A stretch of 64,000 nucleotides of DNA, from positions 9,197,865-9,261,864 of the forward strand of contig CAJINV010000001.1 in NCBI GenBank assembly GCA_905178155.1, read 5' to 3'. Shown piece after piece: positions 6,088-60,200 of the stretch. Every line of letters starts with the position of its first letter. Positions within the stretch are counted from its first letter, which is position 1. The stretch is from Amoebophrya sp. A120 (lineage: Eukaryota > Protista > Dinoflagellata). The notes beneath the pieces were generated by a model. It searched no databases. It saw nothing but the letters and a program-made list of their open reading frames with translations, and was not told the DNA's origin. The position numbers and the translations under genes were made by a program.

Positions 6088-7146
6088 ATGTCGCGGGAAA
6101 CAGAGATTTTGTACGACCGGATTACCCGTCTGGAGAAAATGGTGCAGGAACAGAGCGACAGAATTTATAAGCAGGACGACCGAATCAACCACCTCGAGAA
6201 GGAGCTGCTTTTTGGAAAGGGCCCTACATGTATACGGATTTTCTTAGATGGAGATGATAAAATTGCAAAAACATGATGTATTGAGACTGACCTTAGAGGA
6301 AGCGTGAATACTTCTAGAGAAACTCCAAGTACTAGTATTTTTGCATTCCATTTTTTATTACCCCCGCCACCACACCATCGACAGCCCGTAGAGCCGAGCG
6401 GAAGACCGACGAGGAGAAGCAAAAAGAGGAACAAGCCACCGAGCGGGTAATGGAAAAATTGGAAGAGCGTCGCGTCGACACGCGCTGCATCGATTTCTGG
6501 CGCTCCATATCAAATGCAAAAATGTCTGGGTCTGGAAACTTGTGATGCTGGGTGGCGTCTCATGATGAGGCTACAACTGCTGGCTCAGCATGACAAGTTT
6601 CTGAGCTCCTCGGTGTTGCCTATTCTGCATGACAAACTGCGCTTCTGCGTCACAGAAAAGCGGAGCTCTTGGGTAACGTGCATGACAGATTTAAGAGTCA
6701 TGCCAGACAAGCATGACAAACATGAATTCTTCCAGACCCAGACATTTTTACAGTTGATACTCCAACCCGGAATGTCACCTTGAGCTGCTGCGTTTCGTCG
6801 AGGACGAGGAGAAGCCGCCGGGCCGCGAGCCGGGACGCGACGAAAGTCCCTACTGGATGGCGACCTTGAAGAAGTACTTTGTTTTTTCATTTGTTGCAGA
6901 AGATGTATTGTAAGTATGACAAGCGCTGTGATGAACTCGATGGGCTAGAGAACTCGATACGGATGCGAACCACTAGGTACCTGTTAAGAAATTGATTCTC
7001 TAAACGCCTCGAATGTGAATGCAGAGTATCAAATTAAACTTTTCAGGCACCTGGACATCAAGCATGGCATTCCCCCGAAGGGAAAGGGCAAAAAGGGAAA
7101 GCGCGCTTCCTCCCGCTCCAGGTCCCGCTCTCGCCGACGCTACTAA
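6088..7146 (+). CDS. Small coiled-coil + helical-domain protein with C-terminal RS tail (candidate RNA-binding/splicing factor)
   Basis: Exons 6088-6229, 6385-6507, 6765-6873, 7047-7146 (two GT-AG introns, one introner) give an open ~157-aa protein ending KGKGKKGKRASSRSRSRSRRRY. Paralogous to 7815-8834. Confidence 0.65.
6508..6759. mobile_element. Introner/MITE family A, 252-bp subfamily, TSD CTCCA
   Basis: ~30-bp TIR TATCAAATGCAAAAATGTCTGGGTCTGGAA ... TTCCAGACCCAGACATTTTTACAGTTGATA. CTCCA at 6503-6507 and 6760-6764. Near-identical to 58153-58404. Removal restores ...DFWRS-NPECHL... Confidence 0.93.
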
Positions 7147-7814
7147 GTCACGATTGGATCATTGTTTTTCCCAATGAGCGACGCAATTACATGGTTTTTG
7201 ACACGGAGACAACTTAAACATTCGCTGTGGATGAAGTACAAGAACCGGCACAACTTCATCGGGTAGAACTAGAAATGGCATCTACACGACATTCACAAGT
7301 GGCAGAAATCTATTGTGCGCGCGAGCTCCTATGATCTTCTGGGTGTTGAGCCCGAATGTTTCACGTACGCCGCGAGATGCAGCTGGGCAGTTGTTCCCGA
7401 TTTATTTCACCAGTGCGGGTGCTGTACGAATTTCAAAGATCAGTTTTGGCGAGACCGCAAAAGCTCTAGTTTTTATGACACCCGTGCTGGATAGAGGCAA
7501 GCTCGCTCGCTAGGGTACTCGTTCCGGGAAAATGTAAAAGAAAAGAAACTTCCCGCCGTGCCAACGATGGTGTTGAGCAATGACATTGCACAAAATGTGT
7601 GTAGCTAGTTTATTCTAAAAGGTAGCAGCGACGCCTAATATTTTCAATGTTTCGCACAGGGTAAACGTAAATTGGCTTTAAATTATCGATTCGAACGCAA
7701 CCCAAAACTTCACTTCAGCGAGCTCAGAAATGTATTGAGTTCATTTTTTCGTCTCCTTGCTCTGACTTTGCGACATCCGCAAAAGCCTCATTTGTCAGTA
7801 GCATCACGACCATC

Positions 7815-13118: not shown

Positions 13119-13329
13119 GAAACGCAATCTGACGTGTCCTCTGCAGAAGAGGACCGGAAGGTGATACACTTTGACTTTTTCTCTCAGAAAACGCGACGCA
13201 ATAAAACGCAATACTTCTACGACAGAGGTGGCGTTTTCATTTCTGACTACGAGTCTCCTGTAAGGTGTTCGAGTTGTTCCAGCCACACCTCATCATGCCA
13301 TACGAGCTCTGCCAGATCACGTTTCGTTC

Positions 13330-15660
13330 CTTCCGATCCGAGAGCCCGACAGAAAGCGCAAGAGCGCCGCGCAGGGTCTGGCTCATTGCCCGGCAGTTAT
13401 GCCCCCGCGGGCGGATGCCTGTGCAGCGCTCGAAAAAGCCTGGCGCCGCCCCGTGCCCGCGCATGGTGGTGGCAACGGCGGCGGCCTGGGGGATGCCCCC
13501 GCCCCTTTTGCAAGGGGGCAACTGCCGGAGATCAGTGATGTGCGGAAACGCAGCGGCGGCGTCGCGTCGACCCCCTTGAGCCCGGCACAGGGATACTTCG
13601 CGAGAAGCTGGGGCTAGCCCTCGACAGTCATCGTTTTGGAGATGTTAGCAATGCAAGGCCGCCGGAGCGATTTCCGGCTGGCGCACGCTGCCCGCCCGGC
13701 CGCCCTCGTCTCCACCTTGCGCAGGTTACCTGGCACTGCTGCGGGGCCTGCGCAGATGGCCGGGCGGCGATTGGGGCCGCTACGAGTTGACGGCGGCGGG
13801 CGGCATCTCCGCAAGGCAGGCGTTGGCGGGCATCCGCAGCAGGAACGGCGGCGGGCCGCGGTCGGGCGCTTGTTTTACGGCGTCCCGGCGGGGAACGGCG
13901 ACGGGAGCTGCCGGGCGCGGGAAACCTTGCGCGACCCGCTGGCGACGAGCCGCCGCGAGATAGCGCCGGGCGACGGAGTAGCTAGAGGCGGGCCGTGTGT
14001 GCGAGCTCCTATACGGGCAGCCCTATAACGAGGCCGCAGAGCCTGGCTCGGCAATGCGCGGGCGCCGGCTTTTTCGCATTTTGAGCCCCTGCGCTGGCGT
14101 TGCCTGATCGAACCACGGGCCGCCCGGTGGTTGCTTGCGTGCGCGCTGCCCCCCATCGCGCCGGGGATGCGCGGGGATTTTTTGGGGGGGGGCCGGCGGC
14201 CGCCCATCGGCCCCACCTTCGTCCGCGCGGGCATACCGGGGCCGCGGGCGGGCTGCAGTTTTTGCAGTCCCGTCGTGGTGCGGGGCAAGGCCGGAGCGCC
14301 GTCCCGTTCACTTCCGCCATCGGGGCGCTTGGGGCGCCCATGTGGCTACGTGCCAGACCGACGCGGGCCGAGGCAGCGCACACCGACCCAACTACATCTC
14401 CAAGGCCGGCGACTGGGCTCCCGAAAGGTTGCGGGCGGCGGCAGCGCCAAGGCTAGGCGCCGCAGTCGCCGGACGGCAGCCGGGCACAAAATAGCCGGGC
14501 CCGGTGCGATGTCGCGGCGGCGGGTTTTTCGAAGTGCCGAGGCGGCCGGGCGGGCTCTAGGGTTCGGGCGGTACCACAGCAGCCCACGGCGGCGGCCTCT
14601 TCGTCTCACCCGCGCGATTCCTGGCCTCCCTTTTCCGTTGTGGCGCGAAATATATCATCTACACCGCAGAAGAATTGCCGTGTATGTTTTTGGGCGGACA
14701 TGCACCGATGTGGGCCAAGGAAGTATCCATTTCTATGAGATGCGGCTCATAGGGTTGGGGCAGCCCGGGCGCCAGATGAAGAACGTGCTATCGCAAGAAA
14801 AAGCGCGGCGCCCGGGCGCGCTGCCCTGTTTTGCTGCTGCCGGCGTGCGCGTATCTTCGGCTGCCCGGCACATTGCGGGGCTTTGGGTTCCTGGGCTTTG
14901 CCGGCCACTGAGCAGCATGGCCGCCCGCAGTGAGGCAGGTGAATACGCGGGGGCGCGCCATCGAAGCCGGGCGCTTCCATCATTCAGGCCGGAGGGGGGA
15001 GCGATCGCGCGGCCGCGACCCGTCGCCCCGGGCAATCGCGAGCGTTCGCGTCTTGGTATCGTTGTCGGCCGAGGATCCAGATGGCCCACGGCAAGACGCC
15101 GAGAGCGCGGCCCATTCGGGGCGTTGTGGCCTGGTGTTGTGCAGCTCGTCCGAAGTCGCTTTCCTTCGATGAGGGTAGCAGCACTCGGTCGAGTTCCAGC
15201 CCCCCCCGCTGCAGCTCCGCACAGGAGGGCCATCCATTCGCACAAAGCTGCGCCGCCCGGCTAGTGGCGCCCGCAGGCGCCGCAAGCAATCCCACAGGTG
15301 GCGCCCCCGCGCCCGCACTTGTTTGCAAAGGGCCGCAGCGCTTTGAGTGCTCGCGAGCCCCGGCAGCGAGCCAAAGCAGGGCGCCGCGCGCGGAGGCGGG
15401 GGCGGGGCCCCGCGTTCCGGAAGTTGCCCCGGAAAGGCCTCCCGGGCAACGCCCCTCATGCTCCGGCGGGTGGTGCCCAGAGTGCCCGGCCGTGATTGGC
15501 GCGGCCAGCCTTATTCGCGGGCCGGCGGGGGAGAGGGGTGCGGACGCTGTCGAAGCTCCGACTGCGGGCGCTTCGGTCGTCTTTTCAATTCGGAAACGAT
15601 AGGGGCAGCCACATTGCAACTGCACCGAAGCCCACCAGGGCCCCGGTCTTGCTTATGCAG
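13330..15660. other. Very GC-rich island without a credible intact ORF (decayed mobile element or poorly resolved sequence)
   Basis: Abrupt composition shift. ORFs in all six frames are Arg/Gly/Pro/Ala-rich and non-specific. G/C homopolymer runs. Confidence 0.5.
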
Positions 15661-16267
15661 TTGAAAGTTCCCGCAGGGTGCATATTGGTCTGCGCGAAGT
15701 GGTTTATGGATCAGATCAGTTCGATACTATGCCGCTTGAGACGTTGGTCTTGCTGATCCAATTCGCAAGAAACCAAAGTCACGCGTTCGTTGAAATAAAT
15801 CCATTGTTCCTGAATGCTCCCGGCCACTGCCGCGTGCTTGACTGTACGGACGCCCATGACCGTCAGTCGATTTCTCCGCGATGCAAGCACTTGCTCGTGA
15901 CGTCAAGAGCTCAACCTCTGCGCAGTTTCCGCAGCTGGTAGTTCTGTTAAGGCGGGAATATGTACCAGAATCGCCCTCGCTATTGTATTCCCGCATGTAT
16001 CAAAATCAATGAATTCGAACTCAGCGAAGGAAGAAACCAATGTAAGTTTCCAACGTCTGATCGTCAGCATACAGACCGAGCGTCACCATACAGAAATAAA
16101 CCCTGCTGTACTCAACAACTCGAAATTTATCGTTGGAGTCGTTTTATTTTTGTTGCAGGTATTTGCCGAGAAACGAAAAACTGACCTGCAGGTTGGACCT
16201 CCGTCTTTTACTTTTTCACCATCTCGAGCTGCGTGCAACGTGCTTCATACATTGCATCAAAATCAAA

Positions 16268-40880: not shown

Positions 40881-40881
40881 T

Positions 40882-41090: not shown

Positions 41091-41731
41091 CTGATCTTGA
41101 ATGATGCATTAAAGAAATCTTATAATTTCGGTGTCTTTCCTCGACACGGATTGCAGTGGTAATCTACTGTCGTGTCAGAGTTGGTTATCATTCTTGGGGC
41201 CAAATACAAGATAGGTTTTTTGCGGTTTCAAATGTATGAAGAACTTTTTCGCGTTGTACCATGGGTATCAAATCCCACGAGACGTTCGCATTCATTGCGT
41301 GTACGCCGGAGTTGCTGTTGGCCGTATTTTCTTGTGCCAAGCTAGCAGCATCTTGATTTTGAAAAACTTTGTACCGATTGTATGAATCTCAGCTCGAAGT
41401 GATTGAATGTAGATACATAGAGGAAGTCAAAGAATCCAGAACTACAACATTCTGCACTCTGTGGCTCAGGAGGTCGAGCCAGAGTAAAACTTGCGAGACG
41501 CTGACATACATCCTTCTTTTTCATGATCGTCTCTTTGTACAGGTGTTCACATTCAGTCATTTTTGACTTCAGCATTTCATGGATCTCAGTACTTTTACAC
41601 AAGACGACTTGTGAGTGCGGAATTTGCTATATCAGGCATTGTCTGTTTCAAATCAGTTTTTCCCTTGTTGCTCTGTTTTATTATCCTATCACGGGGCGGC
41701 GTTACTGAGCATCAAGTAACTGTAACTGACC

Positions 41732-42842
41732 ATGACAACCATGTTGCTCGACCTGTACAGCACCCTGGAGTCCAACATGGCCGCCCGCCACCTCACGGAA
41801 GCGTGTGGCATGGTGCTGCCTTTGTTGCTGTTCTTGGCTCCGCTGCCACTCGTTGTCACCCAGCATCGGACAATGTCGGTCGGAACGATGCCGCCGCTGC
41901 CTTTTCTCGCGGGGTTAGGAACGAATTTGCTGTGGCTAATCGCAGGAATCGGAATGCAACAGGTTGCCATGATTGTTCCGAATGCGTGCGGCTTGGTGCT
42001 GCATTCCGCCTACGTGTTTGTCTACTTCTCAGCGTTAACGGCGGAGTTGCGGTTTTACTTGACTAAAGCAGCTTCATCTCCGGAAACAGAAAAAGACAGC
42101 AGTAAGGTCTCTCCGGTCTTGCTCGCAGCTGACAAGGATGAGGAGGCAGTCGCAAAGAAGAAAAAACCCACTTCGGTGGACTCGAAGCCCGCCGTGGCCC
42201 GGCGTCGCTCGCAGACCCCATCCAGCATGAAAAAGGGAAAATCACCTGCGCGAAAAAAGAGTACGGACGGAAAAAAAACCGATGTTGACTCAACGAAAGC
42301 GGAAGCCGACAAAGTTGTGAAGCGGAGGTCGTCAAGTGCAAATCCAAGATTAGAAACATTAGTCGCGAAGAAGAAGGTTTTTTACGTACTTTTAGCCTCT
42401 GTCTCCGGCGCGGCCGTGTTCGGTGTCGTTGCACTTGCCGTCCAGAAAACCCAGCTTGTGGCACTGCTGGCTAGCGCTCTGAATGTGGCAATGTCCGGCG
42501 CTCCAGCATTGGCGCTCCGCACGGCGTGGACGACCAAGGACAAAAGTTGCTTAGGTAAAAATCGGTATGATGTTTTATTTGTGTAAGCGATAATGAAAAG
42601 CTGCAATTTGTCTCAGCGTGGAACAGTGTTGTTCACTATATCTCTCCAAAAACAAAACAGGAAGTGGTGCCATGCTGTTTGCCGGGCTTGCGTGTTCCCT
42701 CGCCTGGACGATGATCGGCGCGATTTGGTGGAAGGACGTCCAAGTTCTCGTCCCGAATGCCATCGGCCTCGCGACCAGTATCGTCGCCTTGATGCTGGGC
42801 AGCTGGATCGATTTGACGGTGAAAAAAAAGAAGGCGGACTGA
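41732..42842 (+). CDS. SWEET/MtN3-family sugar transporter-like protein
   Basis: Two MtN3-like halves (LFLAPLP..PPLPFLA..N.LW..VPNACG; GAPALALR.AW.TKD..AW..G...D..VLVPNAIG) separated by a long K/S-rich loop. GT-AG intron 42555-42660. Confidence 0.75.
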
Positions 42843-43245
42843 TTCCGAACCGGGAATTCAGATGGCCTCTCAGCGGCGAAGCACCGTTAGTCGTACGAAA
42901 GTTCTTTACTCGATCAGCACTTCTAAAAACCGCACTCCCACGTTGCACAAAATTTTTATTGTGAGCGAGAAACAAAAAGCAGTTTCTTAGATGATGTAGA
43001 AGAAATTGTAGTTCGTCCCCGCCGTGGACATACTGCACCTGCAGTAACACGCTTGCTCACGCACGGTAGCTACGTGACGCTCTTTGTACAGGAACCTCCC
43101 CGATGTTCAGACCCACCCTTTTTTCTTTTATCTCTCGCACTAGCGGCAACGGGACGCCTATCAAGCACAACAACATTCATTATAGAAACCCAGAATACAA
43201 CAATGTGAATTGACGTTTTTGCGTGTTTCCTACCTTTGAGTCGCT

Positions 43246-46118
43246 ATGTCTTGGTCGTCCGTTTCTGCCCGCTGCAGAAATGCTTCGGGCGTAAGAGGTG
43301 CGTCGCAAACCTACCTGCACAAAAGTCGCCTCGTTCCTGCATGCGGGAGGTCGACTTCCGGTGGCAGCCTGCCCTCGCGCCTACGTGGAACAGCACTAAG
43401 TGATAGCAAACGGCACCCAGCATCAGATCGCCAACAAGCCCGACACTACGGGTTCGGGTCTTTTCACAAAGCAGAGCTACTTCCTGGCGCTTTGCCAACG
43501 CGACAGTTTTCGCCGATAAAGCCAGCGTATGGGCTCTATCCAGAGCTCTTGTCGGGGACGACCTTCACCGCGCCGCGCGCGAAGAACCGTTACACGTGGA
43601 TGTACCGATGCAGACCCAGTGTGAAGCACGATGGCCAGTACCAAAATGGAGATCACAAGCTTGCGAAAGCAGTGGCAAATCACCGATGGACGACTCGACC
43701 TGCGATGAATCCGACATCGCCGTCGCAGTTTCGCTTTCCCAGGCTCGAGGTACAGTGAATCGATCTTCTTCTTTGCAGGATAGAGAACAAAAAGTGGCGT
43801 GCTTGACAGTTGCTTGTATGGATTTATTTGCATCAGTGTGAATCAAAAGCTAGACGCCAAATGAACTGTTACAGGAGCCCCGCGGTCTGACGTGTGACTT
43901 TTTGGACGGCATGGTAACTTTGGCTGTGAACGGTTCAGGCGAAAAGCAGCAGGGGGCCGCGGCTTCGGTGTATTCTTGTACGCAATCCATGACGCGGGTT
44001 TTTCGGAATCACGATGCAGAGATGATGATAATTCCGCAAAGCGGAAATCTCTGTGTGCGCACGGAGCTTGGAGTGCTGAGACTAGAGCCATCGGTATAAA
44101 GACATAGGGAGTTGATTTTCTTTCCACTCGGAGTGGGCCTGAAACGCGTTAGAATGGCGGGAATGATTGTCGTCACTTTTCCCATCGGCACGCAATCCAA
44201 TAGATGACTCATTCATTTAAATTCAGGAATTCGCTTTGATTCCTCGCGGGATGGTGTTTCGCGTGGAGATCGATGGCGACGCCGCTGAGGGATACGTTTT
44301 GGAAAACTTCGGCGCTCTGTTCCAATTGCCCGAACTGGGCCCAATCGGGATCAGCAGTGGTCTTGCGCACCCGAGGCACTTTGTCCCGGCCGAGCTCGAG
44401 GGCAACAAGGAACTCGCTCTCGACAACGCTAGCAAAAGGCTACCGCAGCCAACCGAGATCATTTCCAAGTTTCAGGACAGTTTTTTCGAAGCAAAAACGG
44501 AGTTCAACGCGTTTGACGTGGTCGCGTACTACGGGAACTACATTCCTGTCAAGTACGATCTGCGGGATTTCATGGCGATAAATTAGACCAGAAAATCGGA
44601 CGAAGTACATACTTTTTCGCGCACCCGCTGGCATGGCGGGCCACTTTCGTTTCGCTTTGAGGGCGGCGGGATGCCCTTGCAACACACCCGGCCCGAGGAA
44701 CTCGCTGCGCCATGCAGCGGCCCGGGCGTTGTGGCTTGTCAAAGAGAGCCGGGGCGGCCTCCCGGCCTCGAAGCCCGCCCAGAGCGAGAAGCGCCGCCCC
44801 GCCAAGCGGCTTCCCCCCGGGCCTTTCCCTGTCGGGGCGATGCGCCACCGCCATGTTTTTTGCCGGAAGCACATGGGCCTGCTTGCCGTAAAGGAGGGGC
44901 CGGCCGCCGAAGCAGTAGAGCGCGCGCCCCTTGGGTTGGGCCTGCTTCGGCCCAAGCCACCGCCCCCCAAGTTGGGGGTAATGATGGGGGGGCCCGGAAG
45001 GCGCGCGCGCCCCCCCCCTCTGGGGGGGGGGTAAACAGAGGGCAGAATTGGGGCAATTCTGCCCCCTTTTTTAGGGGGGGGCAAAAAATGGCCTTCCCCC
45101 GATGCTACAGGGGGGGAGCAAAATGGCCCAGAACCGGGCACATTTTACCCCCCCCCAAAAGAAGGGCGAATTGGGCCAATTCGGCCCCCCCTTTTCCCCC
45201 CCGGAAGAAGGGGAGGGCGCGCACGCCTTTCAAGGGGCGTGCAGTTCACCCGCCGGCCGGGGCCCCGGATGAAGAAGGGCGCGCCGCCAAAGCAAAAGCT
45301 TTTCCGGCCCCGGACGGGCTTCGAGTTGGGGCCCCGGGATGCACGCCGCGTCGGCTGTGCATCCTCGACTTGAGCCTCGCGCGGGGGCGGGTGGCGAAGT
45401 GCTGGCTGCGTGCCGTCGCCTTCCTATCTATGTCCGGCCGACCCTCCCCGGCCCCGGCCGCCCCGCCGCAATGCCGGAGGCTAATTTTTCCGGGGTAAAG
45501 CAGCCCGGAACGCGGTCGCGCCTTCGCGCCCCTCAACTTCTTTCCGCCCGCGACCCCCATTGCACGGGGATGCGCAAAAAAACATGTACTTCGTCCGATT
45601 TTCTGGTCTAAATAAACACGGTCACCTACGACCACCCGGACCCGAGCATCGGCAGTGTTTTGTCAAGTTACGCGGACCAGAGTTCCGGCCTTGCGAACAT
45701 CGACTTTGTTTGCTTTCCGCCACGGTACGTAGTCGCGGAAAACACCTTCCGGCCGCCGTGGTTTCACCGGAACTTCATGAGCGAGTTCATGGGCCTGATT
45801 ATCGGGAGTTACGACGCGAAGAAAGGATTCTCGCCGGGGGCTAGTTCCATTCACAACGCGTTTGTCCCGCACGGACCGGACAGGGCCGCGGTGGAGAACG
45901 CGAGCGGAAAAGACCCATTGACCCCCGAAAGATACGAGAACGCGTTGGCGTTTATGTGGGAGAGCAATCGGGTGTGGAAACCCACCGAGTTTGCACTGAA
46001 AATTGTCGACAAGGAATACCGGAAGGAGTGCGGGTGGAGCGAGATACCCGACCGTTTCGACCCGAACAACGCACCGCCAGACCCCCAACCACGACCGTTT
46101 CAGGGTGGGAGCGGCTGA
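43246..46118 (+). CDS. HGD: Homogentisate 1,2-dioxygenase
   Basis: Exons 43246-43749, 43875-44093, 44227-44582, 45617-46118. [83 protein letters not shown]. Confidence 0.95.
44583..45611. mobile_element. Large introner family D, 1029 bp, TSD ATAAA
   Basis: Perfect 28-bp TIR TTAGACCAGAAAATCGGACGAAGTACAT. ATAAA at 44578-44582 and 45612-45616. Removal gives the conserved [16 protein letters not shown]. Confidence 0.93.
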
Positions 46119-47130
46119 ATCTATTTCAGCCTCTGAGTTAGTTTCGTCCGACCGTGTAGAAAAAGTTTCGAAAGCACCACTGACTTTGATTGCACCGCAG
46201 AGGCCATTTTCTTGAAGCAGAGACACGACGCACTATGCCCAGGAATAAAAAGTTCATGTTCAGATGCGAGAAGATGTTTCGAGAAGCAGGATCCCATATG
46301 ATGTTCGGCTTCACACTAGTCTAGCTACTGCCTTGCATTGCGAACAGCATTTCAATCTTCTCTGTGATAGCAGCAACTGAAATTTGCTGCATGGCTTTTG
46401 GATCATCAAGAAACCTTGTCATTTATTACAATGCGCCGTTTGAAATCCCAGCAGAAAAGACAGAGATGCTTGGTGACGATCTTGAAATCTTTGGCTGTTT
46501 TTTTTTGTCAACGCTGGCGTCGTCTTTTTTGGCTCGTGTGACCTGCGTACTCTGCGATCCGCGCTTCTTTTTTCGTCATCGGCAAGAACGAAGTCCACTG
46601 CTCGCATGTCATTGACCACTTCAAACTGACCAAAATAGTTTTGTACTAGGTAGGCACCGAAACCGAAAGAATAAACTCACAGGGAAAAATTTCTGGATGC
46701 ATCCGTGTCTTTGTTTGATGTCTGCGTAACGACCTCCGTGCCTGGACTTTTTTTGCAAATAACCGCTCTAGATTTTTCATTTTTGCTATAGAATATTTCC
46801 CTCGAACCAAAATCTAACTTTTGCAACATACTTTCACCCTGAAGTCAGTTCTTTTGCCGGGATTGTCGACGAGACTGCAATTTTGGTTTTGATATTTTGG
46901 ACCAACCGGAGAGTCTTCACCGCAGAAACAAACAGCTTGCAACAATCGATTCTCGTCGCTCCGGTAGCTGGCCGCGAGCTGGCAACGCTTGGATCAGCCC
47001 GGGTGAAAAGAAAAACAACAAATCACAACGACAACGAACAAACGGGAAGTTCTTGAGGAGGAGGGGGAGTAGTTCGTGCTGCGGAGTCTGGTTGAACACG
47101 CTGCAGGGACCAGTTCTTCGTTGGGGACAG

Positions 47131-49802
47131 ATGGCCTCTCATCTCTTTCCGACAGCTGGAGTGGTTGCCTCCTATACTGTGCTTCTCCGGCTCGCTGTCA
47201 TTCTGCTCCCGGTGTCGTGGCCGCATTCGTCTCTGAACACTTCTTTCGTCGCAGCTCGCTCGGCGCGCCTACTGACCGCGGCAGCTCCCCGGTTGATCAC
47301 GGCCGACCCGGAAAAGCAAGCGCACCGCTTGTTGTCCACCTTAGCCGGTACTTCTACCGGGAAGAATAGCAGTGCGTCGTCGAGCAGCACGTCTACTACT
47401 TCCGCTGCGGCACCAGGGGCCGCGGCAGCATTGGTTCCGCGCTCCGCCTCTGACCACACTTTACTGCCTGCGCGCCGCAACACACCACCTACGTTGAACG
47501 TGACCGACGCATTGATTCGGCAGTACAGACCGCAAAGCGCATCGCCGACGGTTTCTCGGAGACCCTCATCCACCTCGTACGCGTCCAGCGACTCCGGCTC
47601 CTCCACGCCGGCGGCAAATTCCTCGAGGAGAAGCAGCCTGAGCAACCTGAGCGATGCCAGCACCGCGGCCTCGACACCGAGCTCTAGCAGGCGTGGCAGC
47701 CGAAAAACTCCGACTTCGGGCCGGAACGCGAAGATCGATGCCTGGCTCGAAGACTTCAACACAGGAGATCGGATCACGTTCGGGCGAAATGGCAAGCTGA
47801 TCCGGCATGATGAGAGTGTTTCTCGGCAATCCGACTTTCCGGCGGGCAGCCCTCTGACCGCGATTGAGGACGACGACGAAGAGAAAAACTCGTCTGAAGC
47901 GGAGACAGCACGGAGTTCTGACATCATCATAGACGGGAGCACACCAGCAGACCGCGAGGTGGGCGATGCGGATGTTGACGTTGACACCGCAGGAGGAGCA
48001 GCTTCTGACGACAAAGGTCCGTTCATGCTCAGTCCCACCGCGGGGAGTGCTCCGGATGTTGTGGAGAAAACAGCTTTTACCGGTCCCGCAGCCTCATCGG
48101 ATCGTCCCCAATCCAACCAGTCTGAGCTGCTGGAATTCGCGCGTACAGTGGCGCACAACGCGCATCAACAGGGCGTTGAAATCGCAAAGAGTACTAGCGC
48201 AGCGCTGAACTACAAACTGAAGGAAAAGCCTCGTCGGGACAGCGGCAAAACTGAATCAGCAGGCAGTGGGACTACAATTCATCCTCTGGCCATAGACAAT
48301 CCAGAAGACCAGGAGCTGGCGGCTCGGCTTCAGCTTTCGCGGCTTTCACTCGACAGCAATCCGACTTCTGTGGAGCATCATCAAAAGGAGAAAACAAATG
48401 CGAACTCCGGCAACAAACCCATCTTGCAAAAAAAGGGGTCTGTTTCATCCGGTGCTTTGCAAGCGGTGGACGGAACCACGGAAGTGAGGGGGGACGAGGG
48501 TGTTAAGTCGGCGAAGTCAGTTGCGTCGATCCCTGCGTCTCCTAGCAAGCGGGTATCCTTCGCGCAGGAGCCAGACTTGTCGGAGTTCAACGTGCTTCCC
48601 GTGGAAAACACGCTAAAGAAAAACGCCAACGCGATCGGGTTACAATGCTCGCCGGATATCTTCGCCTCCGGGTCGCTGCAGGCAGCACAGTACGAGAACT
48701 GCATCGAGGAGGCATTGCAAGAGCTATTTGAAGTGGAGTCGGAGCTGCAGAAGTATTTGACCTTTTTTCGCTTCAGAACAGCCCAAGCTTTATGACTGTT
48801 TGAAATCACTCTTAATACTTTTGACTTCGACGCGCAGCTTTTTTTTTCCCGAAATTCGTCAAAAAATAAACTTGAAATAAGTATACGCATCAAACACGAC
48901 AGATTAAATCTTCCTCCTTCGAAGCGGCGTGGCCTGACTGCGCGTGCCGCGTTCCTCGTGAACCGGTTGGATCAGCTACGCGAGAAATTATGTGCGATGC
49001 ACAAGCATGCGACGGAGGCTGCCACGACGGCGAGTGACATGCTGGCTACCTTGATCTGTCGGTCGGTCGCGCACGCAGAAAAGCGGCAAAAGCAGTATGC
49101 GGACCTGCGCGATGCGATCCACGAGAAACAGGCGGTCGCGCAGAACATGCTGAGCCTGGAGAAGAAAGTGGCGCACGTCGTGTCGATTCGCAAAAATCCA
49201 GTTTGGACCATGACCAAGCGCTTCTCAAAACTGGCTGCAACGTATTGCCTTGTTTTTCGTGTGATTTTTTTAAGAAATCATCGATACAACTCTTACTGAG
49301 CCACTCCCAGATCCAAATTTGCAGAAGGCCGCGTAAGCACGCGCTACTATGATGACAGTTTTTGAATGTCTGACGTTGACACGCAAGTGCCACTGACGAC
49401 TTTAAAACCAAAAGAAGATTAATAATTGCCTGATGTACGTGATGAAATTGGAAACCACGCGAGTTATATTCAAAAAGAGGAGGCGAAAAGCGACAGCTCC
49501 AGTGTGCGATGAAGTACCAAAGACGTGAAGCTGCAGTCGTGATGACAAAATTTAGAATCTGTGACAGCATCCCCTGGGTGTTGATTGAAGATTCAAAAAC
49601 AAATGAAGATTAATAATTGCCTGATGGTTCCTTCTCTCTAATCGCACGTTGTGCGAGTCCGCCTCATTTATTTGCAACACAAGATCATCAAGCGCCCTTC
49701 CAAATCGTGTCTTGTTAATTACATCACCACAAAAAAATCTGCAGTGCCGCTGTGACAGAACTGAAGCGACGCTTCACACAATCCGCATCGTCCAAGAGTT
49801 AG
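47131..49802 (+). CDS. Hypothetical protein: hydrophobic N-terminus, Ser-rich linker, C-terminal coiled coil; snoRNA host gene
   Basis: Model exons 47131-48753, 48925-49201, 49311-49332, 49745-49802. Two junctions need T...AG introns, the last intron (49333-49744) is GT-AG. Confidence 0.55.
49345..49437 (+). ncRNA. Box C/D snoRNA candidate, copy 1
   Basis: C box ATGATGA 49349-49355, internal CTGA 49370-49373, D box CTGA 49430-49433 preceded by GAAGATTAATAATTGC, complementary to an 18S rRNA segment (GCAAUUAUUAAUCUUC, recalled not searched). Confidence 0.7.
49535..49628 (+). ncRNA. Box C/D snoRNA candidate, copy 2
   Basis: C box GTGATGA 49539-49545, D box CTGA 49621-49624 with the same antisense element. 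Remainder diverged from copy 1. Confidence 0.7.
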
Positions 49803-51370
49803 GGTCGAGCAACGGACAAAACAAACTCACTGCATCTGTTCTAAATTTTCCTTATCCGGCACTGCTTTCACTTCCACCGAGCGCATGGACGGACCATCTG
49901 TTCGCCTTCCTCATCCTTTCGCTGTGTTACAAATGACGGACTCCGAAGCATGGCAAAAGAAGCAAGGCGCAGCCGGTGTGTACTTACACGGCCCTTGGCG
50001 AACTTCGAAGTAGATAAGTGCTTTGAGAAGCAGAATGCAGCCTCTTCTTTGCTCGTGATAATTGTGTTTAAAAGAAGTAACAAACTGTATTATGCACGCA
50101 CTTTTGAAATGTACGAAAGCAAGGGTCGCTTGCGACCTGCTGCTGGTGATAAACTTGACCGTAATTGACGAAAGTATAGAGTGGTTTTAGAGAGTAGAGT
50201 GATAAAACCACGACGACCACAAGCGCTTTGTGTCTTGGTCTTGCGAGACGCTGGCGTTGATAATTGTTAATCGTAAGTGCAAAGAATACCGAAAACAGAA
50301 GCTGCGTTTGCGTTTCTGCAGATGCTGAATTGCATATGTGTAAAAGATTTTTTGAGAATATGGAAAAGTTTTTGTCACAGCTATCACAAAGTTTTGATGG
50401 TTCGCGTGAGTAAACCAGTTCTTAAGTGTTGAAAAATGAACACCCGTATCACTTCACTATTCTGAAAAAAATCGAAAACAATCTGAATGCCTGCCGGGTG
50501 AAAAAAAAACTCGGCCTAGTCTGTCAACCACAAAGAAACTTAGAATTGTCGTATAGACGGAGCTTCTTTTTGGGTTTGGCTTCGTTCTAAAGAAAGGGGA
50601 ACAGCAAGATTCTGTCTTCTGGCGACCGCCGCACCTCCTAAGGTGGCGGGATATAGTTTTCAGGCTGTTCAAACATTTTGTTCGCGTTCGCCGAACTCAG
50701 ACGGCATTCTTTTGCGGCAAAGAAACTCAAATCGGTTTTGAGAGAGAAGAACAGCACCTACTAGTCCAGTCGGTCTATGTGAAATTTCAGTTGCTTGTAT
50801 TGGAGAAATTAACATGCTGGCACCACTCACTGAACGAGATCTTAAATCTGCACTTGTGACTTCTCGTGCTGCTACAAGAAGTGAAGGATCACCGAATTTT
50901 CCTCCGTGGCTGCATCATTCAACAGTGAAAAGCACATTCGAACCAAACTCCTCGAGTTAGTTTGAAAAACACTACATTCTTTCCCTGAATTTAACTGCAA
51001 GCCCTTGTCCAGAACTAGAATTCTTTCTCGCGAAAAACGAAAACGCAAGATCCATCTTTTGTGTAGGACACTTAGAAACTAGAAATCGCTCTGAAAAGAC
51101 GACTCTTGGCCAGAAAAAGAGATCAAAACTACAGAAAACTACAGTTTGTTGAAGATCCAAAAGCTTCTCGGAAGTGGTACATAGTTTTGACGAAAAAAGG
51201 TCTCGCACGGAAAATTATTCTCTCAAAATAATCCAATCTATCCCTAAAAAACCCATTCAGGTAGCTCGGTAGAGTTAGTCTAGTCCTATATCAGAATTAG
51301 AATACAGCTACGTTGATTTTATTGTCATTTTTCTCTCTTCAGTTCCTTTTTTCGACCACACTAAGCGAAA

Positions 51371-54300
51371 ATGGCGGAAACCTTCGCATTCAACGCGGAC
51401 ATCCAACAGTTGATGTCCCTGATCATCAACACTTTTTACAGCAACAAGGAAATCTTTCTTCGTGAGTTGATCTCCAACGCCTCCGATGCTCTGGATAAGA
51501 TCCGGTACGAGTCCATCACGGACCCGGAGAAGATCGAGTCGCAGCCCAACTTCTTCATCAAAATCATCCCGGACAAGACCAACTCCACTCTGACGATCGA
51601 AGACAGCGGAATCGGAATGACCAAGAATGAGCTCGTCAACAACTTGGGTATTCATGGAAGAGTTTTTTTGTTGATGTGTTTCGTTTCTGTTGGTGGAAAG
51701 AGTTTTCGCGGGCAAGGTGTTGAAAGAATTTTCATTCACAAGTTCTGTGTGAATACCTGGTGTGCCACTTTCATTTTGAACAGGTACGATCGCGAAGTCC
51801 GGAACCAAGGCCTTTATGGAGGCTATGTCCGCTGGTGGCGATGTTTCCATGATCGGTCAGTTCGGCGTGGGTTTCTACTCCGCCTACCTAGTTGCCGACA
51901 AGGTGCAAGTCGTTTCCCGCAACAACGACGATGAACAGTACATCTGGGAATCCGCGGCCGGTGGGTCCTTTACCGTGGTCAAGGACACCGAGCAGGTGTT
52001 CGGTGAAGTCAAGCGCGGAACCAAGATCGTCTGCCACCTTAAGGAGGACATGACGGAGTTCCTGGAGGAGCGCCGCCTGAAGGACCTGGTCAAGAAGCAC
52101 TCCGAGTTCATCGGATTCCCGATCGAGCTGTACATCGAGAAGTCCGAGGAGAAGGAGGTAATGTGGGCTTTTTGTTGCGCGCTTTGTTACCGGTGTCTCA
52201 TTGTTGAAATGTTTTGTAAAATCTGCGAAGCGCGTGCCCGCTTCCTTGGCAATCAATATATGAAACCGGCGTATTAAACAGGTCACCGACTCCGAGGATG
52301 AGGAGGAAGAGAAGAAGGAGGACGAGGAAAAAGAGGGTGACGAGCCGAAGGTTGAGGAAGTCGATGAGGAAAAGGAGAAGGAGGAGAAGGCCAAGAAAAC
52401 GAAGAAAGTCAAGCAGATCTCGCACGAGTGGGAGCAGCTGAACAAGACCAAGCCGATCTGGATGCGCAAGCCGGATGAGGTCACCAACGAGGACTACGCG
52501 GCCTTCTACAAGGGTCTCTCCAACGACTGGGAAGACCACCTCTCGGTACGTGCTTCTTTTGATATTCGTGCTTCTGCATTTTGGTTCTTGTGATGTTGTG
52601 TCAGGCCAAAAACTGGTGCGGTACCGTTGATCCTACTCCGCGATGCTCATCTTCCCCACGTCTCCTCTACTACGGTGGAGACGCGGGTCCTATGCCATCG
52701 CCACAGCAAAGTTGAAGTTTCTTCCATGCAAGAAATTCTGGCTTTCTCGTGAGTTTCTTGTCCATATGGCTTCTGACAGCGTTTTTTGATCTTGTGTCAG
52801 GCCGAAAACTGGTGCAGTGCCCTTGATCCTACTCCGCGATGCTCATCTTCCCCACGGCTCCTTCACTACAGTGGAGACGCGGGTCCTATGCCATCGCGAC
52901 AAGAAAGTTGAAGTTTCTTCCATGCAAGAAATTCTGGTGGCTTTCTCGTGAGTTTCTTGTCCATATGGCTTCTGACAGCGTTTTTTACGGACACTGCTTG
53001 CTTGGCTTTCTTCAATTTCGCACACATTGCTAGCGTACTTGTGGTTTTCGTTCATTTACTTTGACATCGATCTAAAATTTCAAAATCGGCTTTATCCAAC
53101 AGGTCAAGCACTTTTCCGTCGAGGGTCAGCTGGAATTCAAGGCTCTGCTGTTCGTCCCGCGCCGAGCTCCGTTCGACATGTTCGAACAGAAGAAGAAGCG
53201 CAACAACATCAAGCTGTACGTGCGTCGTGTCTTCATCATGGACGACTGCGAGGACATCATCCCGGAATGGTTGTCCTTCGTTAAGGGAGTTGTCGATTCC
53301 GAGGATTTACCGCTGAACATCTCTCGTGAGACCCTGCAACAGAACAAAATCCTGCGTGTCATCAAGAAGAACTTGGTCAAGAAGTGCCTGGAAATGTTCG
53401 CCGAAATCGCGGAGAACAACGAGGACTACAAGAAGTTCTACGAACAGTTCTCCAAGAACTTGAAGTTGGGCATCCATGAAGATTCCACCAACCGCAACAA
53501 GGTCGCGGAACTCATGCGTTACCAAACCTCCAAATCCGGCGATGACCTCATCTCCCTCAAGGAATACGTCGACCGCATGAAGGAAGGCCAAGAAGACATT
53601 TACTACATCACTGGCGAATGCGTCGCTGCCGTGGACGCGTCTCCGTTCATCGAGACCTTGAAGAAGAAGGGCCTCGAGGTACAGAAACGGTCGTTGTTGC
53701 CTTTTTCTTCGGTATGCATTTGCATGATTATATTATAGAATGTACGTGACGCAAAATCCAAAATAGGATTTGATGGCTTTTGTTTTTGACCCAGATATAT
53801 TGATTTGAAAATTAATTTCTTCCACCAGGTTCTGTACATGGTCGACCCGATCGATGAGTACTGCGTGCAGCAGTTGAAGGAATTCGACGGTAAGAAGCTG
53901 AAGTCCGTTACCAAGGAGGGCTTGGACCTCGAAGACGAGGACGAGAAGAAGAAGCTGGAGGAGCAGAAGGCCTCCTTCGAGAGCTTGTGCAAGCTGATCA
54001 AGGAGGTCCTGGGCGACAAGGTCGAGAAGGTGATGGTGTCCAACCGTATCAGCGAGTCTCCGTGCGTGCTTGTCACGTCCGAGTACGGCTGGTCCGCAAA
54101 CATGGAACGAATCATGAAGGCACAGGCGCTCCGCGACTCCAGCATGACCTCCTACATGGTCAGCAAGAAGACCATGGAACTCAACCCGAACCACGCCATC
54201 ATGAAGGAACTCCTCGCCAAGGCCACCGCCGATAAGGGCGACAAGACCGTCAAGGACCTGATCTGGTTGTTGTTCGATACGTCGCTCCTGACGTCCGGCT

Positions 54301-54464
54301 TCAATTTGGACGAGCCGACCCAGTTCGCGGGCCGCATCCACCGCATGATCAAGCTCGGATTGTCTCTGGATGACGACGAGGATGAGGCTGATGAGGACCT
54401 CCCGCCTCTGGAAGAGGTCGAGGGCGCCGACGCCGAGGCTTCCAAGATGGAAGAGGTCGATTAA
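51371..54464 (+). CDS. HSP90: Cytosolic heat shock protein 90
   Basis: [36 protein letters not shown]-terminal MEEVD. GT-AG introns 51648-51783, 52158-52281, 52546-53102, 53679-53828. Confidence 0.98.
52638..52781 (+). ncRNA. Box H/ACA snoRNA candidate, copy 1 (HSP90 intron 3)
   Basis: Hairpin (GCGATG...CATCGC), ANANNA hinge ACAGCA 52703-52708, second hairpin (CAAGAAATTC...GAGTTTCTTG), ACA 52776-52778 plus 3 nt. Confidence 0.65.
52834..52980 (+). ncRNA. Box H/ACA snoRNA candidate, copy 2 (HSP90 intron 3)
   Basis: Tandem duplicate. Hinge ACAAGA 52899-52904 differs from copy 1 only at N positions. ACA 52975-52977. Confidence 0.65.
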
Positions 54465-55824
54465 ACGACGTTTCCGACGAAACGGAGGTAAAAAGCACGT
54501 TTGATATTGCGACACAGGTACTCTCTCAGTTTCCGATAACAACACGTACAAAAGGAACTTGAATTATTTCTTATCCCATAATTCTGAAATAGGCTATGGC
54601 TAGACTTCGAGCGATTTTTTGAATCGAAACAGACGAGTGGCAGTAACAAACTGCTCGTTTTTTTGATTGCTGTTAAACTATGTCTTGCACGACACAACGA
54701 ACAAGAGACCATTGTGCGCTGCAGTTTGGTTTCGAGGCTGTCGTTGATGAGAATCGAGAATTAATTCGAAAATTTGCAGTGTATTTGGGACAACCGAAGA
54801 ATGCGTAAAATTTCTTAGAATACTGCTATCACGACATCGTTTCTCTCTGAAAAGAAGATCAGATAATCAAGTGCAGATCCCGGGACAGAAGAAGACTCAT
54901 TTATGTACACGTTTGAATCGTAACAACAAGGTATCTAATGCATCCCGCGGAATATCAAAACCGATGGAATGCAGTAGCGCCTTTGTTCTTTTTTATTTGA
55001 AGAATGCAACACGAACAGTCTTCATAACCACTAGAAATGCCACTACCTAAAACTATTCCTATACGAAATGTACAGACGTGATTTCTTCAGACTCTCGATC
55101 TTGCTATCCATGTATGGGTGAAAATTTTTAACCGAAGACTCCTATCCGCGTCGGGAACACCACGGCATCTTATGTCCAAAAAACCGCTTTTTCAACCACC
55201 AAAAACCTTTCTACTCCGATGTAATTTGCTGCCCCTCGCAAGGGAGGAATAGGATAATGAAAATCAAAATCTTGTGAACCCATATGAATCTGCACCTGTA
55301 TATCTTCTGCCCCGGAGCATAGTGTTCGCAGTAGCTCAGGTCGCCGTTCTGTCGCTTGCTAATTTTCTTTCCAGAAAATTTCGCTTGTAAGTAGCCTGTC
55401 ATCGGTTTCTCATCAGCTTGTGCTCGACACAGCATTCGGTTTTTTTTGATCGAAATATGCTCCAGACCATCTTCACCAAGTCATTCCAGATGTCGGTTCT
55501 TAGACCCAAAGAAAGATACGACCTGTACTTGGAAAGTAGAATCAAAGGTTTGTCGGGAAAGGTCTCAGTGAAGCTGCTAGATCCGAGGCTCCATCGCTTT
55601 GGCTGACTAAAACTCTATTCCAGTCTCCCCTCATACATGAGCTCTCGACGACTCTTACATACGTAAAAGTATTTTCACCTGCCTGCTTTACTGAATTTGA
55701 CGACCCAAGCGTGAGGAAGTATCTAAATCTATTTTTCTCGGTTCAGTTGTACGCCCCCCCCCGCCGTCGCACTGTATCGTTCCTGTCTGCGACTTTTATG
55801 TGCTTTTGCTGTTGTAGAAGAAAC

Positions 55825-56498
55825 ATGGGCAATTCTGGTTCCAAGCCGCCACTGACAGGGCTGGCGAAGGTGGTTGACGCAGACTGGTTGGTGCGCCAAA
55901 AATGGTACGTCATTGCTTGCACACCCACCCCGTTCGACCCGGAACCGCATGACGCAGTGGAAAGATACTCCTGGACGGACGAGACAAAGACGAATTTCAA
56001 GGTATTAGACGAGTGGAGTTCTTTGAAACAAAATGCGAGATCGTGATCGGATTGTAAGAGGTTGCAACAAGAAATAAACATTGTCCATCCAAGGGACGAT
56101 GATTATTTTCATCAACGCAGGTAACGTACAAGTTCCGTCCCCGTTCGTCAGACGCAAAGGTGGACACGATGTTTCAGGACGGAAAAACAACAGCAAACGT
56201 GAACGAGTGGAAGGTGCGGCCGCGAATATTTGGCGGCGCGCTGCATGTCATCATGTGGCTGCCGTACTTGATATTGGAGTGTCCAGCGGGTGGTAGTAGT
56301 GCGCAGCAGGGCAGCAAGCCTTTCGTCGTGGGATACCCGGATCGGTCGTTGATTTGGATTATGTCCCTGCAAAAGGAGATGGCTGATAGCGAGTACAAGG
56401 AGACCTTAGACCGCTGCGAAAACGAGTACGGGTATGATAGAGCGATGCTGGACAAGCTTTGGAAAGTCCCCTTCAAAAATGACATACCCGATGAGTAG
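55825..56498 (+). CDS. Lipocalin-like protein (Blc-type)
   Basis: KWYVIA.TPT, AVERY, PYLILE, VVGYPDRSLIWIMS. GT-AG intron 56002-56120. MGNSGS N-terminus. Confidence 0.75.
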
Positions 56499-57235
56499 AA
56501 CTACTTCATCTGAGAACTACATTTTTTTCTCCACGCTGCTAAATTACTGGGACGCAACGGAAACCTCCTCGTCATAATTGGCTACCGATTGGACTCGGTG
56601 TGCTCCAATATCTTGCCTCCGCGTCCGCGCGGCACCGCGTGGTGCGGCTGAGCACCCTACCGTGATGCATCTTGTGATGCTAATGCTTCTTCGAATCTGC
56701 ACATCGCGAGCATTTGCATTACATAGAAATATGGCTGTTCGCAAATAAGTTTTGTCGTAGTTCATCTTGACAATGAATTATGACGTGATTCTGATCGCTA
56801 ACGAGATGGATCGTTGCTGCGATCCAAAGGAAAGATCCTAGGAAAGTCCCTTTGCAGACGAAAAGATCAAGACAAAAAATCAAGAAAGTATAACGCTCTC
56901 GTAACTTTTGCTAGCATGACCGTGGTTCTCAACTGAAAATACATCTCTTTGCGTTTGCCCCAGATAAAAAGTACTTGAGTCTACTTAGGTAACACCACCT
57001 TGGCTAGTTGCTTGATACTGTCTCATCATAGAAATACCATGTTGGCTAGTGTCTTAATACTTTTTGCTAGAAAACTTTACCTCGGATAATAAACTATCGT
57101 ACCTGCGACGATATTCTTGTTCACCCACGCTGCAATATCATTCTTGCTCACTACACTCGGAGGAGTTCTCCGCCACCCTCGCTTTTCTTACTCCATTTCC
57201 CGAAGTACTTTTTCCACCGCACGACATTTTCCACG

Positions 57236-60200
57236 ATGCCGGCTGCGCAGCAATTTTCGCTGACCAGCGAGGCTGACCTGGCCAAGGCGGATGAGCACCT
57301 GCGCAAAGTCTCGTACGTCGAGGGCGGTGCCAGCTGGACCAAGACGGATTTGAAGCACTTCGAAACCGCGAAAAAAATCATGACAGCGGAGAAGGTCAAA
57401 GAGCAATATCCCTCCGTGTCCCGATGGTTCCGACACATGCAGTACCAGGTAGAGGAGACCGAGTCTGTTTCTGTTGGCTCTCTGTCCGGAACCTCTTCCC
57501 TCTTCGCCGCGCAAAAGTTGTCGGAAAACCCGAAGGGCAGCTGCAGTCCACCTGAGCCGAGCACCAGCTCAACGTCGGCAAAGCAGGGAGGTGGTGCGCA
57601 GATAAATGGGAGGAAAAATAATAAAGACCAACAGTCGCAGAAAGCCGCGCCATCTTCCGCAGGGCCGGCCGCCGCCGCAAAGCCCGCTTACGTCAAAGGG
57701 TCGAACGTGAAGGAGGTTGACTGCAAGGTCGTGCCCATGGCGGACCGGCAGAAGCGACTCCCGCAAAACCCGAGCAAGGGCCTGGCCGCGGCGAACCTGC
57801 CCACCAGCAAGGGGAAGGAAACGTATCAAATGTAAAAATGTCTGGGTCTGGAAGAATGCGCGACTTGTCATGCACCTTTTCCATGACACGCGAGGTCTGG
57901 AATGCAGGACCTAGCATGACAGATTCTGTGCGATCTTTCTCATGCCTATCCTGCATGAGAAACTGCCTCCCGACTTGGTCAAAACTGGACGACTTTTGGT
58001 AATCATGCAACACAGATTTTTGCATGCTTCAGATTTAGCATGACAAGTTGCATTCTTCCAGACCCAGACATTTTTACATTTGATAAAACGCGGTATTTGA
58101 CCACGGCTATCCACTACACCAACGGCTGGCCGCACGTCGGGCACGCCTACGATATCAAAAGTAAAAATGTCTGGGTCTGGAAACTTGTGATGCTGGGTGG
58201 CGTCTCGTGATGAGGCTACAAATGCTGGCTCAGCATGACAAGTTTCTGAGCTCCTAGGTGTTGCCTATTCTGCATGACAAACTGCGCTTCTGCATCACAG
58301 AGAAACGGAGCTCTTGGATAACGTGCATGACAGATTTAAGAGTCATGCCAGACAAGCATGACAAACGTGAATTCTTCCAGACCCAGACATTTTTACATTT
58401 GATATACGAGACCATCCAGGCGGATTGTCTCGCGCGGTACTTTCGCCTGAACAACTACGACACGTTTTTCCAGACCGGGACCGACGAGCACGGACAAAAG
58501 ATTGCCGAGGCCGCCACGGCGCAGGGAATGGCCAAGCCAAAAGACTTGTGCGACTACTACTGCCAGGGCTTCGAGGGGCTGTTTGGCCGCACGGAGGTGT
58601 CCGAGGATCAGTTCATCCGCACGTCGTCCCCCGAGCACTACAAAATCGTACAGGACTTGTGGAAGAAGGTCAGCGACAAGGGAGACATTTACTTGGCGGA
58701 GTACGAAGGCTGGTACATGGTGCGCGAGGAAAAATTCGTCACGGATCAAGAGGCGGAAGAGTGGAAATTTTTGGATCCGGTCAATGGCAAGCCGCTGCAA
58801 CGTATTTTTTACAAAATGCTTCGCTTTAGTTCCTTTTTTTTTCTCTAGTGTAGTAGCTAGGATTTCGCACTGGAACTCGATCATCGGTCGTTGCACGAGG
58901 CCTATGATAGATATGTATACCTATGTTTCGAAGTGCATGTTGCGACCACAACATGAATCCACAGGTATGAAGGAACCCTCGTACTTTTTCCGTATGTCCA
59001 AGTACAAGGATTTCATTCGGGAGAAGCTTTCCGAGCCCGGCTGGTGCAAGCCGGACAACTACCGGAAGGAAATGCTTGCCCGGCTAGACGACATGGAGGC
59101 CAAGGGGGGTTTGCGCGATCTGTCCATCTCCCGCGCGAACTTCGACTGGGGTATTCCGGTGCCGGAGAAGGTCGGGCCGGACGGCAAGAAGCACGTGATG
59201 TACGTGTGGTTTGATGCCTTGACGAACTACTACTCCGGCGTCAGTTTCAATCCCGCAAACAGTAAGTACTGGCCGGCAAACATGCACGTGATTGGGAAGG
59301 ACATCATCTGGTTTCACACCGCAATCTGGGGCTCCATGCTGAAATCCGCGGAGCTCCCATTGCCAAAGCAGGTAGTGGTCCACGGATTCGTAAACGACGC
59401 CGAGGGAAAAAAGATGAGCAAGTCTGAAGGTAATTTGGGGGTTTCTCTTTCCACTCCTCTTTTTCAACAATTGGTCTGAATGTTTTCGTGTCTCGTCTGG
59501 TGCTACTGGTATTGGTCATGACATTGACAACTGCACCCATAGCTGCACAAAAAAAGTTTACGCCACACGATGCCTACAGGTAACGTTGTGAATCCGCACG
59601 ATATTTGCGACTGGTGCAGTCCGGACACCCTCAGATGGTACCTGATTCGGGAGGCCCACTGGGGAAACGACCTGCCGTTTTCGGTCAAGAGCCTGAAGCT
59701 CATGCACAACGCAGGTAAGAAAGAGAAAGTAGGAAGGTTGATTGGGGTTATCTGCAACCGGATGTGATCATCATTTCTTTCTTCTTTGGAAGTAGCCCTT
59801 TCCTTCACATTTTGACCCTGCGTAGTAGTGCACGAAAATTGTTGATGAAAACTAACACCTCCACATACGGTACCAGATCTTTGCGACAACTTGGGCAACC
59901 TGGTAAACCGCGCCGTGTCCCTGTGCAAGGGCGCCGTCCCGGCCGTGTCCGATGCGATCATCAAAGAATGTGGGTTGCCATTTGACGTTGCGGAGTTGCG
60001 AAAGAAGTTCTGCGAGGCCTTCGAGGACTGCCGCACCGGTGAGACCGCCGAAATGGCCCGCATCGCGGCGGCGGAAACGAACAAGTGGTTGGCGGATCTG
60101 GAACCCTGGAAGATGAACAAACAGGACCCGGTGAAAGCTGCCGGCGTAGTACGCATCTGCCTCGAGGCCGTCTATGTCCTGGCGCACTTCTTCGCCCCAT

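Follow-up and report, generated by a model that had tools for sequence, protein, structure and literature searches.

The DNA analysed here is a 64,000-nucleotide window of the Amoebophrya sp. A120 genome (contig CAJINV010000001.1, positions 9,197,865 to 9,261,864; the coordinates below are those of the window). It contains ten elements with terminal inverted repeats (TIRs), nine in coding sequence and one in a 3′ untranslated region (3′UTR), each flanked by a 5-bp target duplication. These are non-autonomous DNA transposon copies, namely introners of strain A120, and assembled transcripts skip six of them without using GT-AG splice sites. A sequence-only reading of the window had described ten such elements, in four families and with exact duplications that all differ. 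A blind scan looked for inverted ends, with 15 or more complementary bases out of 20, that have an exact direct repeat of 5 bp on either side. It gave 11 matches and recovered all ten (16–20 of 20 bases complementary); the other was a weak pair at 31373–34803 (3.4 kb, 15/20), rejected as a chance match. Ten shuffled sequences gave 0–1 matches each in the same scan.

The elements are designated here by their first base. Nine are 209–325 bp long, and 44583 is 1,029 bp. The end sequences confirm that nine have TAT...ATA ends and one, 44583, has TTAG...CTAA ends. At all ten the exact 5-bp duplication abuts the arm, and no two duplications are the same. Four end families are found: a TATCAAATGYAAAAATGTCTGGGTCTGGAA-type end is common to seven copies (hereafter the main family), and 28231, 40882 and 44583 each have their own type. 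The core of the TATCAAATGYAAAAATGTCTGGGTCTGGAA-type end has 14 matches in the window, which are the 14 arms of the seven main-family copies (chance 0). A run of A lies near positions 10–16 of the nine copies that start with TAT, and 44583 starts with TTAGA. Four features of miniature inverted-repeat transposable elements (MITEs) are present: terminal inverted repeats, target duplication, many copies and no coding capacity. Per base, the ten elements have a folding energy of −0.33 to −0.57, much more stable than the −0.10 to −0.28 of ten GT-AG introns of the window, and the fold z-score of 58153 is −8.3.

Element 6508 (6508–6759, 252 bp, main family, duplication CTCCA at 6503–6507 and 6760–6764) lies in an unidentified plus-strand gene, and its interior is 95% identical to that of 58153. 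Four copies are found in an HPPD-like gene, which was identified from one exon only: 26530 (26530–26780, 251 bp, duplication GGCGA), 26842 (26842–27103, 262 bp, CAGGA) and 29357 (29357–29617, 261 bp, AAGAA), all of the main family, and 28231 (28231–28555, 325 bp, GGAAG), of a second family. Orientation differs between copies, with 26530 opposite to 6508 and 58153, and 29357 opposite to 38613 and 57824. A kinase gene with EF-hands carries main-family element 38613 (38613–38874, 262 bp, CAGAC) in its 5′ part, within the unconserved N-terminal region of the protein, and element 40882 (40882–41090, 209 bp, CTGAT), of a third family, at its other end. The latter begins one base past the stop codon, the TGA being inside its duplication, and is therefore a 3′UTR insertion. 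Element 44583 (44583–45611, duplication ATAAA), with 67% GC and a fold-back interior, interrupts a homogentisate 1,2-dioxygenase (HGD) gene. Finally, a methionyl-tRNA synthetase (MetRS) gene harbours two main-family copies, 57824 (57824–58085, 262 bp, AAACG) and, 67 nt after it and by the HVGH motif, 58153 (58153–58404, 252 bp, TACGA). The HPPD-like gene (26284–29772) and the HGD gene (43240–46118) represent two steps of tyrosine breakdown, and lie about 13 kb apart.

Deleting each element with one duplication in silico leaves the frame open at each of the nine coding sites, and every element contains stops in the coding frame if retained. The sequence-only reading had claimed that such deletion restores both the frame and conserved motifs at the nine sites; the frame holds at all of them, while restored motifs are confirmed only in MetRS (57824 and 58153) and HGD (44583). 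The MetRS exon in the window is 100% identical to the annotated A120 protein and 85% identical to that of strain A25, in line with the Amoebophrya introners to which that reading had pointed. With 57824 and 58153 removed, the stretch is present letter for letter in the A120 protein, and MetRS of A25 and other homologues are continuous across both sites. One exon beside 44583 aligns with human homogentisate dioxygenase as far as residues 311–312 and the exon on the other side aligns from these residues onward; the overlap of two residues corresponds to the duplication. None of the ten elements has a GT-AG pair in any sliding register, and near-canonical registers exist for three only (GC-AG for 26530, GA-AG for 26842 and 28231), exactly as that reading had stated.

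Transcripts were available as assembled contigs from four runs (X1–X4) of one sample, in which rare forms would not show; I take these to be cDNA because the contigs skip GT-AG introns. They were aligned on 38500–58499 and also over the copies of the HPPD-like gene, and the joints given here are those listed; in the HPPD-like gene, where repeat matches abound, none is listed for 26530 or 26842. At all six elements with a listed joint, the element and one duplication are exactly absent. The contigs skip 267 nt at 38613 and 214 nt at 40882 (X1 and X2), and 1,034 nt at 44583, 267 nt at 57824 and 257 nt at 58153 (X1–X4), in each case the element plus 5. At 29357, an X1 contig covers 28556–29350 and then 29617–30237, so that 266 nt are skipped, again the element plus 5. 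The 3′UTR copy is thus removed as exactly as the coding ones. In 38500–58499, the 15 joints listed for this contig set include all five elements in range and ten GT-AG introns; these canonical, RNA-confirmed introns (40135–56120) all start with GTA and end with CAG. For 28231, a piece of an X1 contig begins at 28556, the position expected from exact removal, the joint itself not being among those listed. An alternative in-frame intron exists there, from GT (28230) to AG (28556), which would predict a start at 28557, and is apparently not used.

Arithmetic on contig depth shows that, in all four runs, the depth in bin 44503–45169 equals the exon share alone, and therefore no contig retains the 1-kb element 44583. 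The DNA-like run X5 retains the elements: its contigs continue across the junctions and into the arms without branching, at a flat depth of about 45. Two raw-read RNA runs, X8 and X9, cover hardly any exon sequence and contain only reads that resemble the elements, and provide no evidence either way. In X8, 52 raw reads match 38788–38838, part of 38613, and continue upstream into other sequence, exon cover there being almost nil; these are possibly from an expressed transcript with part of a related element, maybe in another strain. Looking for non-canonical junctions in cDNA, as had been advised from sequence, hence yields joined forms at six elements, and together with the annotated MetRS protein these joints bear out the precise removal of non-autonomous TIR elements without GT-AG. 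The same reading had allowed nine of the ten to act as introns. Removal stands, but the restriction to nine does not: since the non-coding 40882 is removed too, all ten elements are probably introns.

In order to examine a larger sample of copies, metagenome contigs were scanned for the arm core, which returned at least 151 stretches; 148 loci (L001–L148, partly overlapping, 614 kb in total) were analysed. All 148 belong to one assembly, JACKZZ01, from an A120-like organism, in which one exon is 100% identical to an A120 protein, and its use as an independent lineage was rejected on that ground. Each of nine window copies has 20–158 near-full-length matches in these loci, and the summed depth over elements reaches 2e5, against about 45 in unique DNA. 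Element 44583 has no match in the 148 loci, and is also of low copy number by X5 depth (about 170–290 per bin, against 45). The loci contain 316 TAT...ATA elements, with flanking repeats that are identical in 241, and differ by one mismatch in 43, two in 15 and more in 17; in a looser set of 320, the repeat is 5 bp long in 231 and 6 bp long in none. Frame and strand were called for 143 of 282 testable copies, and for 187 by a second method that masks the repeat. A GT-AG register is present in five of 116 exact-repeat copies, and 97 of the 116 have no GT-AG, GC-AG, GA-AG or AT-AC register. G is enriched neither at the donor position, where it would form GT (53/187), nor at the acceptor position, where it would form AG (61/187), the background being 0.31.

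The orientation of copies in genes is even. Relative to the window references, 33 are in the same orientation and 33 in reverse (66 assignable of 143), and assignment by nearest neighbour gives 32 versus 41 (73 assignable of 139). In the window, 29357 and 38613 belong to one subfamily, have opposite orientations, and are both removed. A polar spliceosomal intron normally cannot be flipped; it must be the symmetric arms that carry the signal.

Two further observations were made on these loci. Of 187 coding insertions, 92 have a duplication that begins at codon position 3, against 51 at position 2 and 44 at position 1 (chi-square p 2e-5), and this skew is not explained by a simple preference for A/T targets. 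Insertions starting at codon position 3 would be phase-0 introns if four upstream bases are kept. At L064:5991–7021, an element is nested within another element, apparently with its own flanking repeat.

Because identical repeats hide the position of the cut, published tallies of end dinucleotides probably reflect alignment placement. The table of A120 families in Gozashti 2025 (PMC12130899) gives a mix of NT.. and ..AN. Loci with unequal repeats give a hint of the true register. At L030:6295–6550, base 1 of the upstream repeat specifies a Gly that 17 of the 20 listed homologues share; the other three are not alignable, and the Glu of the downstream repeat occurs in none. At L014:6809–7133, upstream base 3 encodes a Phe, as in both of two independent homologues, and a third locus, L037, is uninformative. 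Provided that the cut is fixed, these conserved residues hint that at least three bases of the upstream duplication would be kept. A likelihood computed over 22 non-synonymous mismatches agrees weakly, favouring 3–5 kept bases over 0–1 by about 3 log units. Main-family arms start with TA, and with four upstream bases kept the intron would start with N-T-A, comparable to the GTA of the canonical introns.

I propose the following mechanism. An integrase-type transposase (Ginger/IS3-like), provided in trans, would insert the elements, which would be removed in vivo at the RNA level. The two arms would pair, and the resulting terminal stem, of 25–35 bp, would mark both ends in place of GT and AG; orientation and interior sequence would be irrelevant because it is the paired arms that mark both ends. 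The 5′ cut would fall towards the end of the upstream duplication, with at least three of its five bases kept, and possibly one base before TAT, so that the intron would start with N-T-A like the G-T-A donors, while the 3′ cut would be measured from the base of the stem. The enzyme would be the cell's own modified spliceosome, positioned by the terminal stem. Removal in vivo at the RNA level, with paired arms marking both ends, I regard as highly probable. An integrase-type transposase is the somewhat favoured mobiliser, because of the TA termini and the 5-bp repeat. A role for the spliceosome is evenly balanced; it is ranked first because an N-T-A start would resemble the G-T-A of the ten canonical introns, which is a thin resemblance. 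Farhat 2021 (PMC7789003) reports 83 of 89 spliceosomal proteins in A120, with U2, U4, U5 and U6 found, and U1 not found. The position of the cut and the enzyme are the weakest steps of this proposal.

A number of points weigh against it. All ten canonical introns end with CAG, whereas the dinucleotide at the 3′ ends of the elements would be arbitrary. A spliceosome would also need to open a long stem that lies directly against both sites. For 44583, with its TTAG end, a cut at this offset would not give an N-TA start. Hairpin introns with a similar structure in euglenids give rise to non-lariat circles (PMC11282704), and a hairpin with direct repeats is a known signature of reverse-transcriptase slippage (PMC8240250), the transcript evidence here being assembled cDNA of one sample. 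The register rests on two loci, and the likelihood cannot separate three, four and five kept bases. Mismatches in the duplication favour third codon positions, with 29/330 versus 18/605 (ratio 2.95, CI 1.64–5.32; p 0.014 against a null of 1.48, 0.12 against a null of 2.0), a possible sign of a variable cut, or of a role for both copies of the repeat. A fully free cut position is hinted at by this skew only, and is contradicted at L030 and L014. An autonomous element with the same ends was found neither in the 614 kb of loci nor in viral contigs when these were searched with arm patterns. Nine longer candidates in the loci (457–6,197 bp) proved to be nested copies, low-complexity inserts or a chance pair, with no transposase open reading frame (ORF) recognisable by eye (no Pfam scan made). 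A scan of the loci for integrase motifs gave one match, which is not integrase-like, and no transposase was found in A120 by Farhat 2021 (PMC7789003). The sequence-only reading had called both the mobiliser and the excision mechanism unresolved. The second part stands, as the literature searched, which covered few subscription papers, gave no solved excision mechanism for A120 introners; the first no longer holds in full, a Ginger/integrase-like candidate having been published (PMC12130899).

The same elements and the same recognition of the stem are compatible with another enzyme, namely a structure-specific endonuclease acting with an RNA ligase (tRNA-splicing or IRE1/RtcB-like). A120 would then have a second, spliceosome-independent mRNA splicing pathway, in which the nuclease and ligase read the symmetric stem, cut near the end of the upstream duplication and restore the pre-insertion sequence exactly, for inserts of 0.1–1 kb in either orientation. 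The full symmetry of the elements, the lack of GT or AG use, the two orientations and the in-frame GT..AG that is apparently bypassed at 28231 all suit such a pathway, as do the non-lariat circles yielded by euglenid nonconventional introns (PMC11282704) and the missing U1 (PMC7789003). No enzyme of this kind was found, no search having been aimed at it. Set against these points are a spliceosome that is nearly complete in A120, and the strict count by which most non-canonical introns of this strain have no inverted repeats (both PMC7789003), so that a tolerant spliceosome may be needed anyway. I consider this pathway possible, though clearly less likely than the modified spliceosome. The least probable explanation considered is that the duplication supplies splice sites of an ordinary or nearly ordinary kind, as it does in the introners of Micromonas, Aureococcus or Polarella. 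Three of the ten window copies and 15 of the 116 others do have GC-AG or GA-AG registers, and 15% of canonical A120 introns have introner anatomy (Farhat 2021, PMC7789003), but the six copies with a listed joint all lack a GT, GC or GA-AG register, and G is not enriched at either splice position. As a general route, this is contradicted by the contig joints and by the register count over 116 copies.

Two other explanations deny that the RNA is cut. The joints could be template switches of the reverse transcriptase across the hairpin, between the direct repeats, the mRNA itself keeping the elements (for example with ribosome bypass). The anatomy of the elements equals that of published falsitrons (PMC8240250), the RNA evidence is all from cDNA contigs of a single sample, and a literature search on Amoebophrya introns in direct RNA sequencing retrieved a single, unrelated match. 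However, falsitrons make up 25–70% of reads, with the unskipped form present (PMC8240250), while no contig in four runs retains the 1-kb element (contigs drop rare forms); retention would moreover place stops in MetRS and HGD, and there are about 29,850 such introns genome-wide (PMC7789003). I regard template switching as improbable. Still less probable is excision at the DNA level in some life stage, or transcription from uninterrupted alleles or copies. Precise DNA excision would likewise remove the element and one duplication, and X1–X4 and X5 are different samples, but the X5 contigs pass into the arms unbranched and at even depth, the A120 MetRS match is a single protein that fits this locus with both elements removed, and the joined contigs are transcripts, because GT-AG introns are also missing from them.

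Several other features of the window were noted. Seven ORFs of 44583 have no Pfam match. A GC-rich stretch (60–66%) at 13300–15700 gave no Pfam match in the three ORFs tested; it was rejected as a further element, since it lacks duplication-flanked terminal repeats and is not matched in any of the 148 loci. Two similar ORFs, rich in lysine and alanine and containing 78-bp repeats, lie in tandem at 33170–35964; another, related to them, is found at 36525–37589, and none of the three has a Pfam match. An HSP90 intron contains two tandem 196-nt units (52591–52986), a possible intronic snoRNA pair. They show a weak match to the H/ACA snoRNA-like family SNORA79 (E 0.28 and 0.47), far under the gathering score, and an Rfam scan gave no match at gathering thresholds.

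If A120 removes tens of thousands of inserts from its mRNA without GT or AG, it has either a much altered spliceosome or another splicing enzyme. A nuclease-ligase pathway, if true, would hide tens of thousands of insertions from the proteome. This analysis adds 58 copies, of 316, with one or two repeat mismatches; with such unequal repeats, existing RNA-seq can fix where the cut falls, which identical repeats conceal. The indifference to orientation suggests that the entire signal resides in the 30-bp arm, and this arm is a possible portable, seamless intron part.

Among known systems, U2 spliceosomal introns have GT(GC)-AG ends, whereas a GT-AG register is found in 0/10 copies here and 5/116 in JACKZZ01. 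Euglenid nonconventional introns share paired ends, duplication-like repeats, non-canonical junctions, a likely MITE origin and an unknown enzyme, but belong to an unrelated lineage with other end motifs, in which excised circles have been shown (PMC11282704). IS3EU/GingerRoot transposons have TA..TA termini, as nine of the ten elements do, but 6-bp duplications, which are found in none of the 320 copies; Ginger2 has duplications of 4–5 bp, as here (PMC10045372). The window copies have no transposase by which to place them in either class.

Gozashti 2025 classes A120 introners as mostly TIR DNA transposons, and its families resemble the window copies in class, TA termini and 5-bp duplication, many being 250–325 bp long with arms of about 30 bp (PMC12130899). 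Its family 38 (about 808 bp, TA termini, 5-bp duplications) has Copia/Gypsy integrase-like ORFs, which the window copies do not, and is likened to them here by description and not by arm sequence; it is listed as Ginger-like, yet no homology to known Gingers is noted (PMC12130899). Farhat 2021 describes A120 introners of about 240 nt, as non-canonical introns supported by RNA-seq, with a hairpin and about 29,850 copies; the arms start with TAT, followed by seven looser bases and at least three A, and the direct repeats are 3–5 nt, with one 5-bp example (PMC7789003). In the window the repeat always measures 5 bp and directly adjoins the arm, and 44583 (44583–45611) starts with TTA and two purines, the motif given there for strain A25. 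The two orientations, the 3′UTR copy and the hint on the cut position are not met in the available part of that text. With the same genome, TAT-type arms, repeats, size and non-canonical removal, there is no difference in kind (PMC7789003). The phenomenon is thus already known, and the ten elements are further copies of the published introner system, in the strain where it was described.

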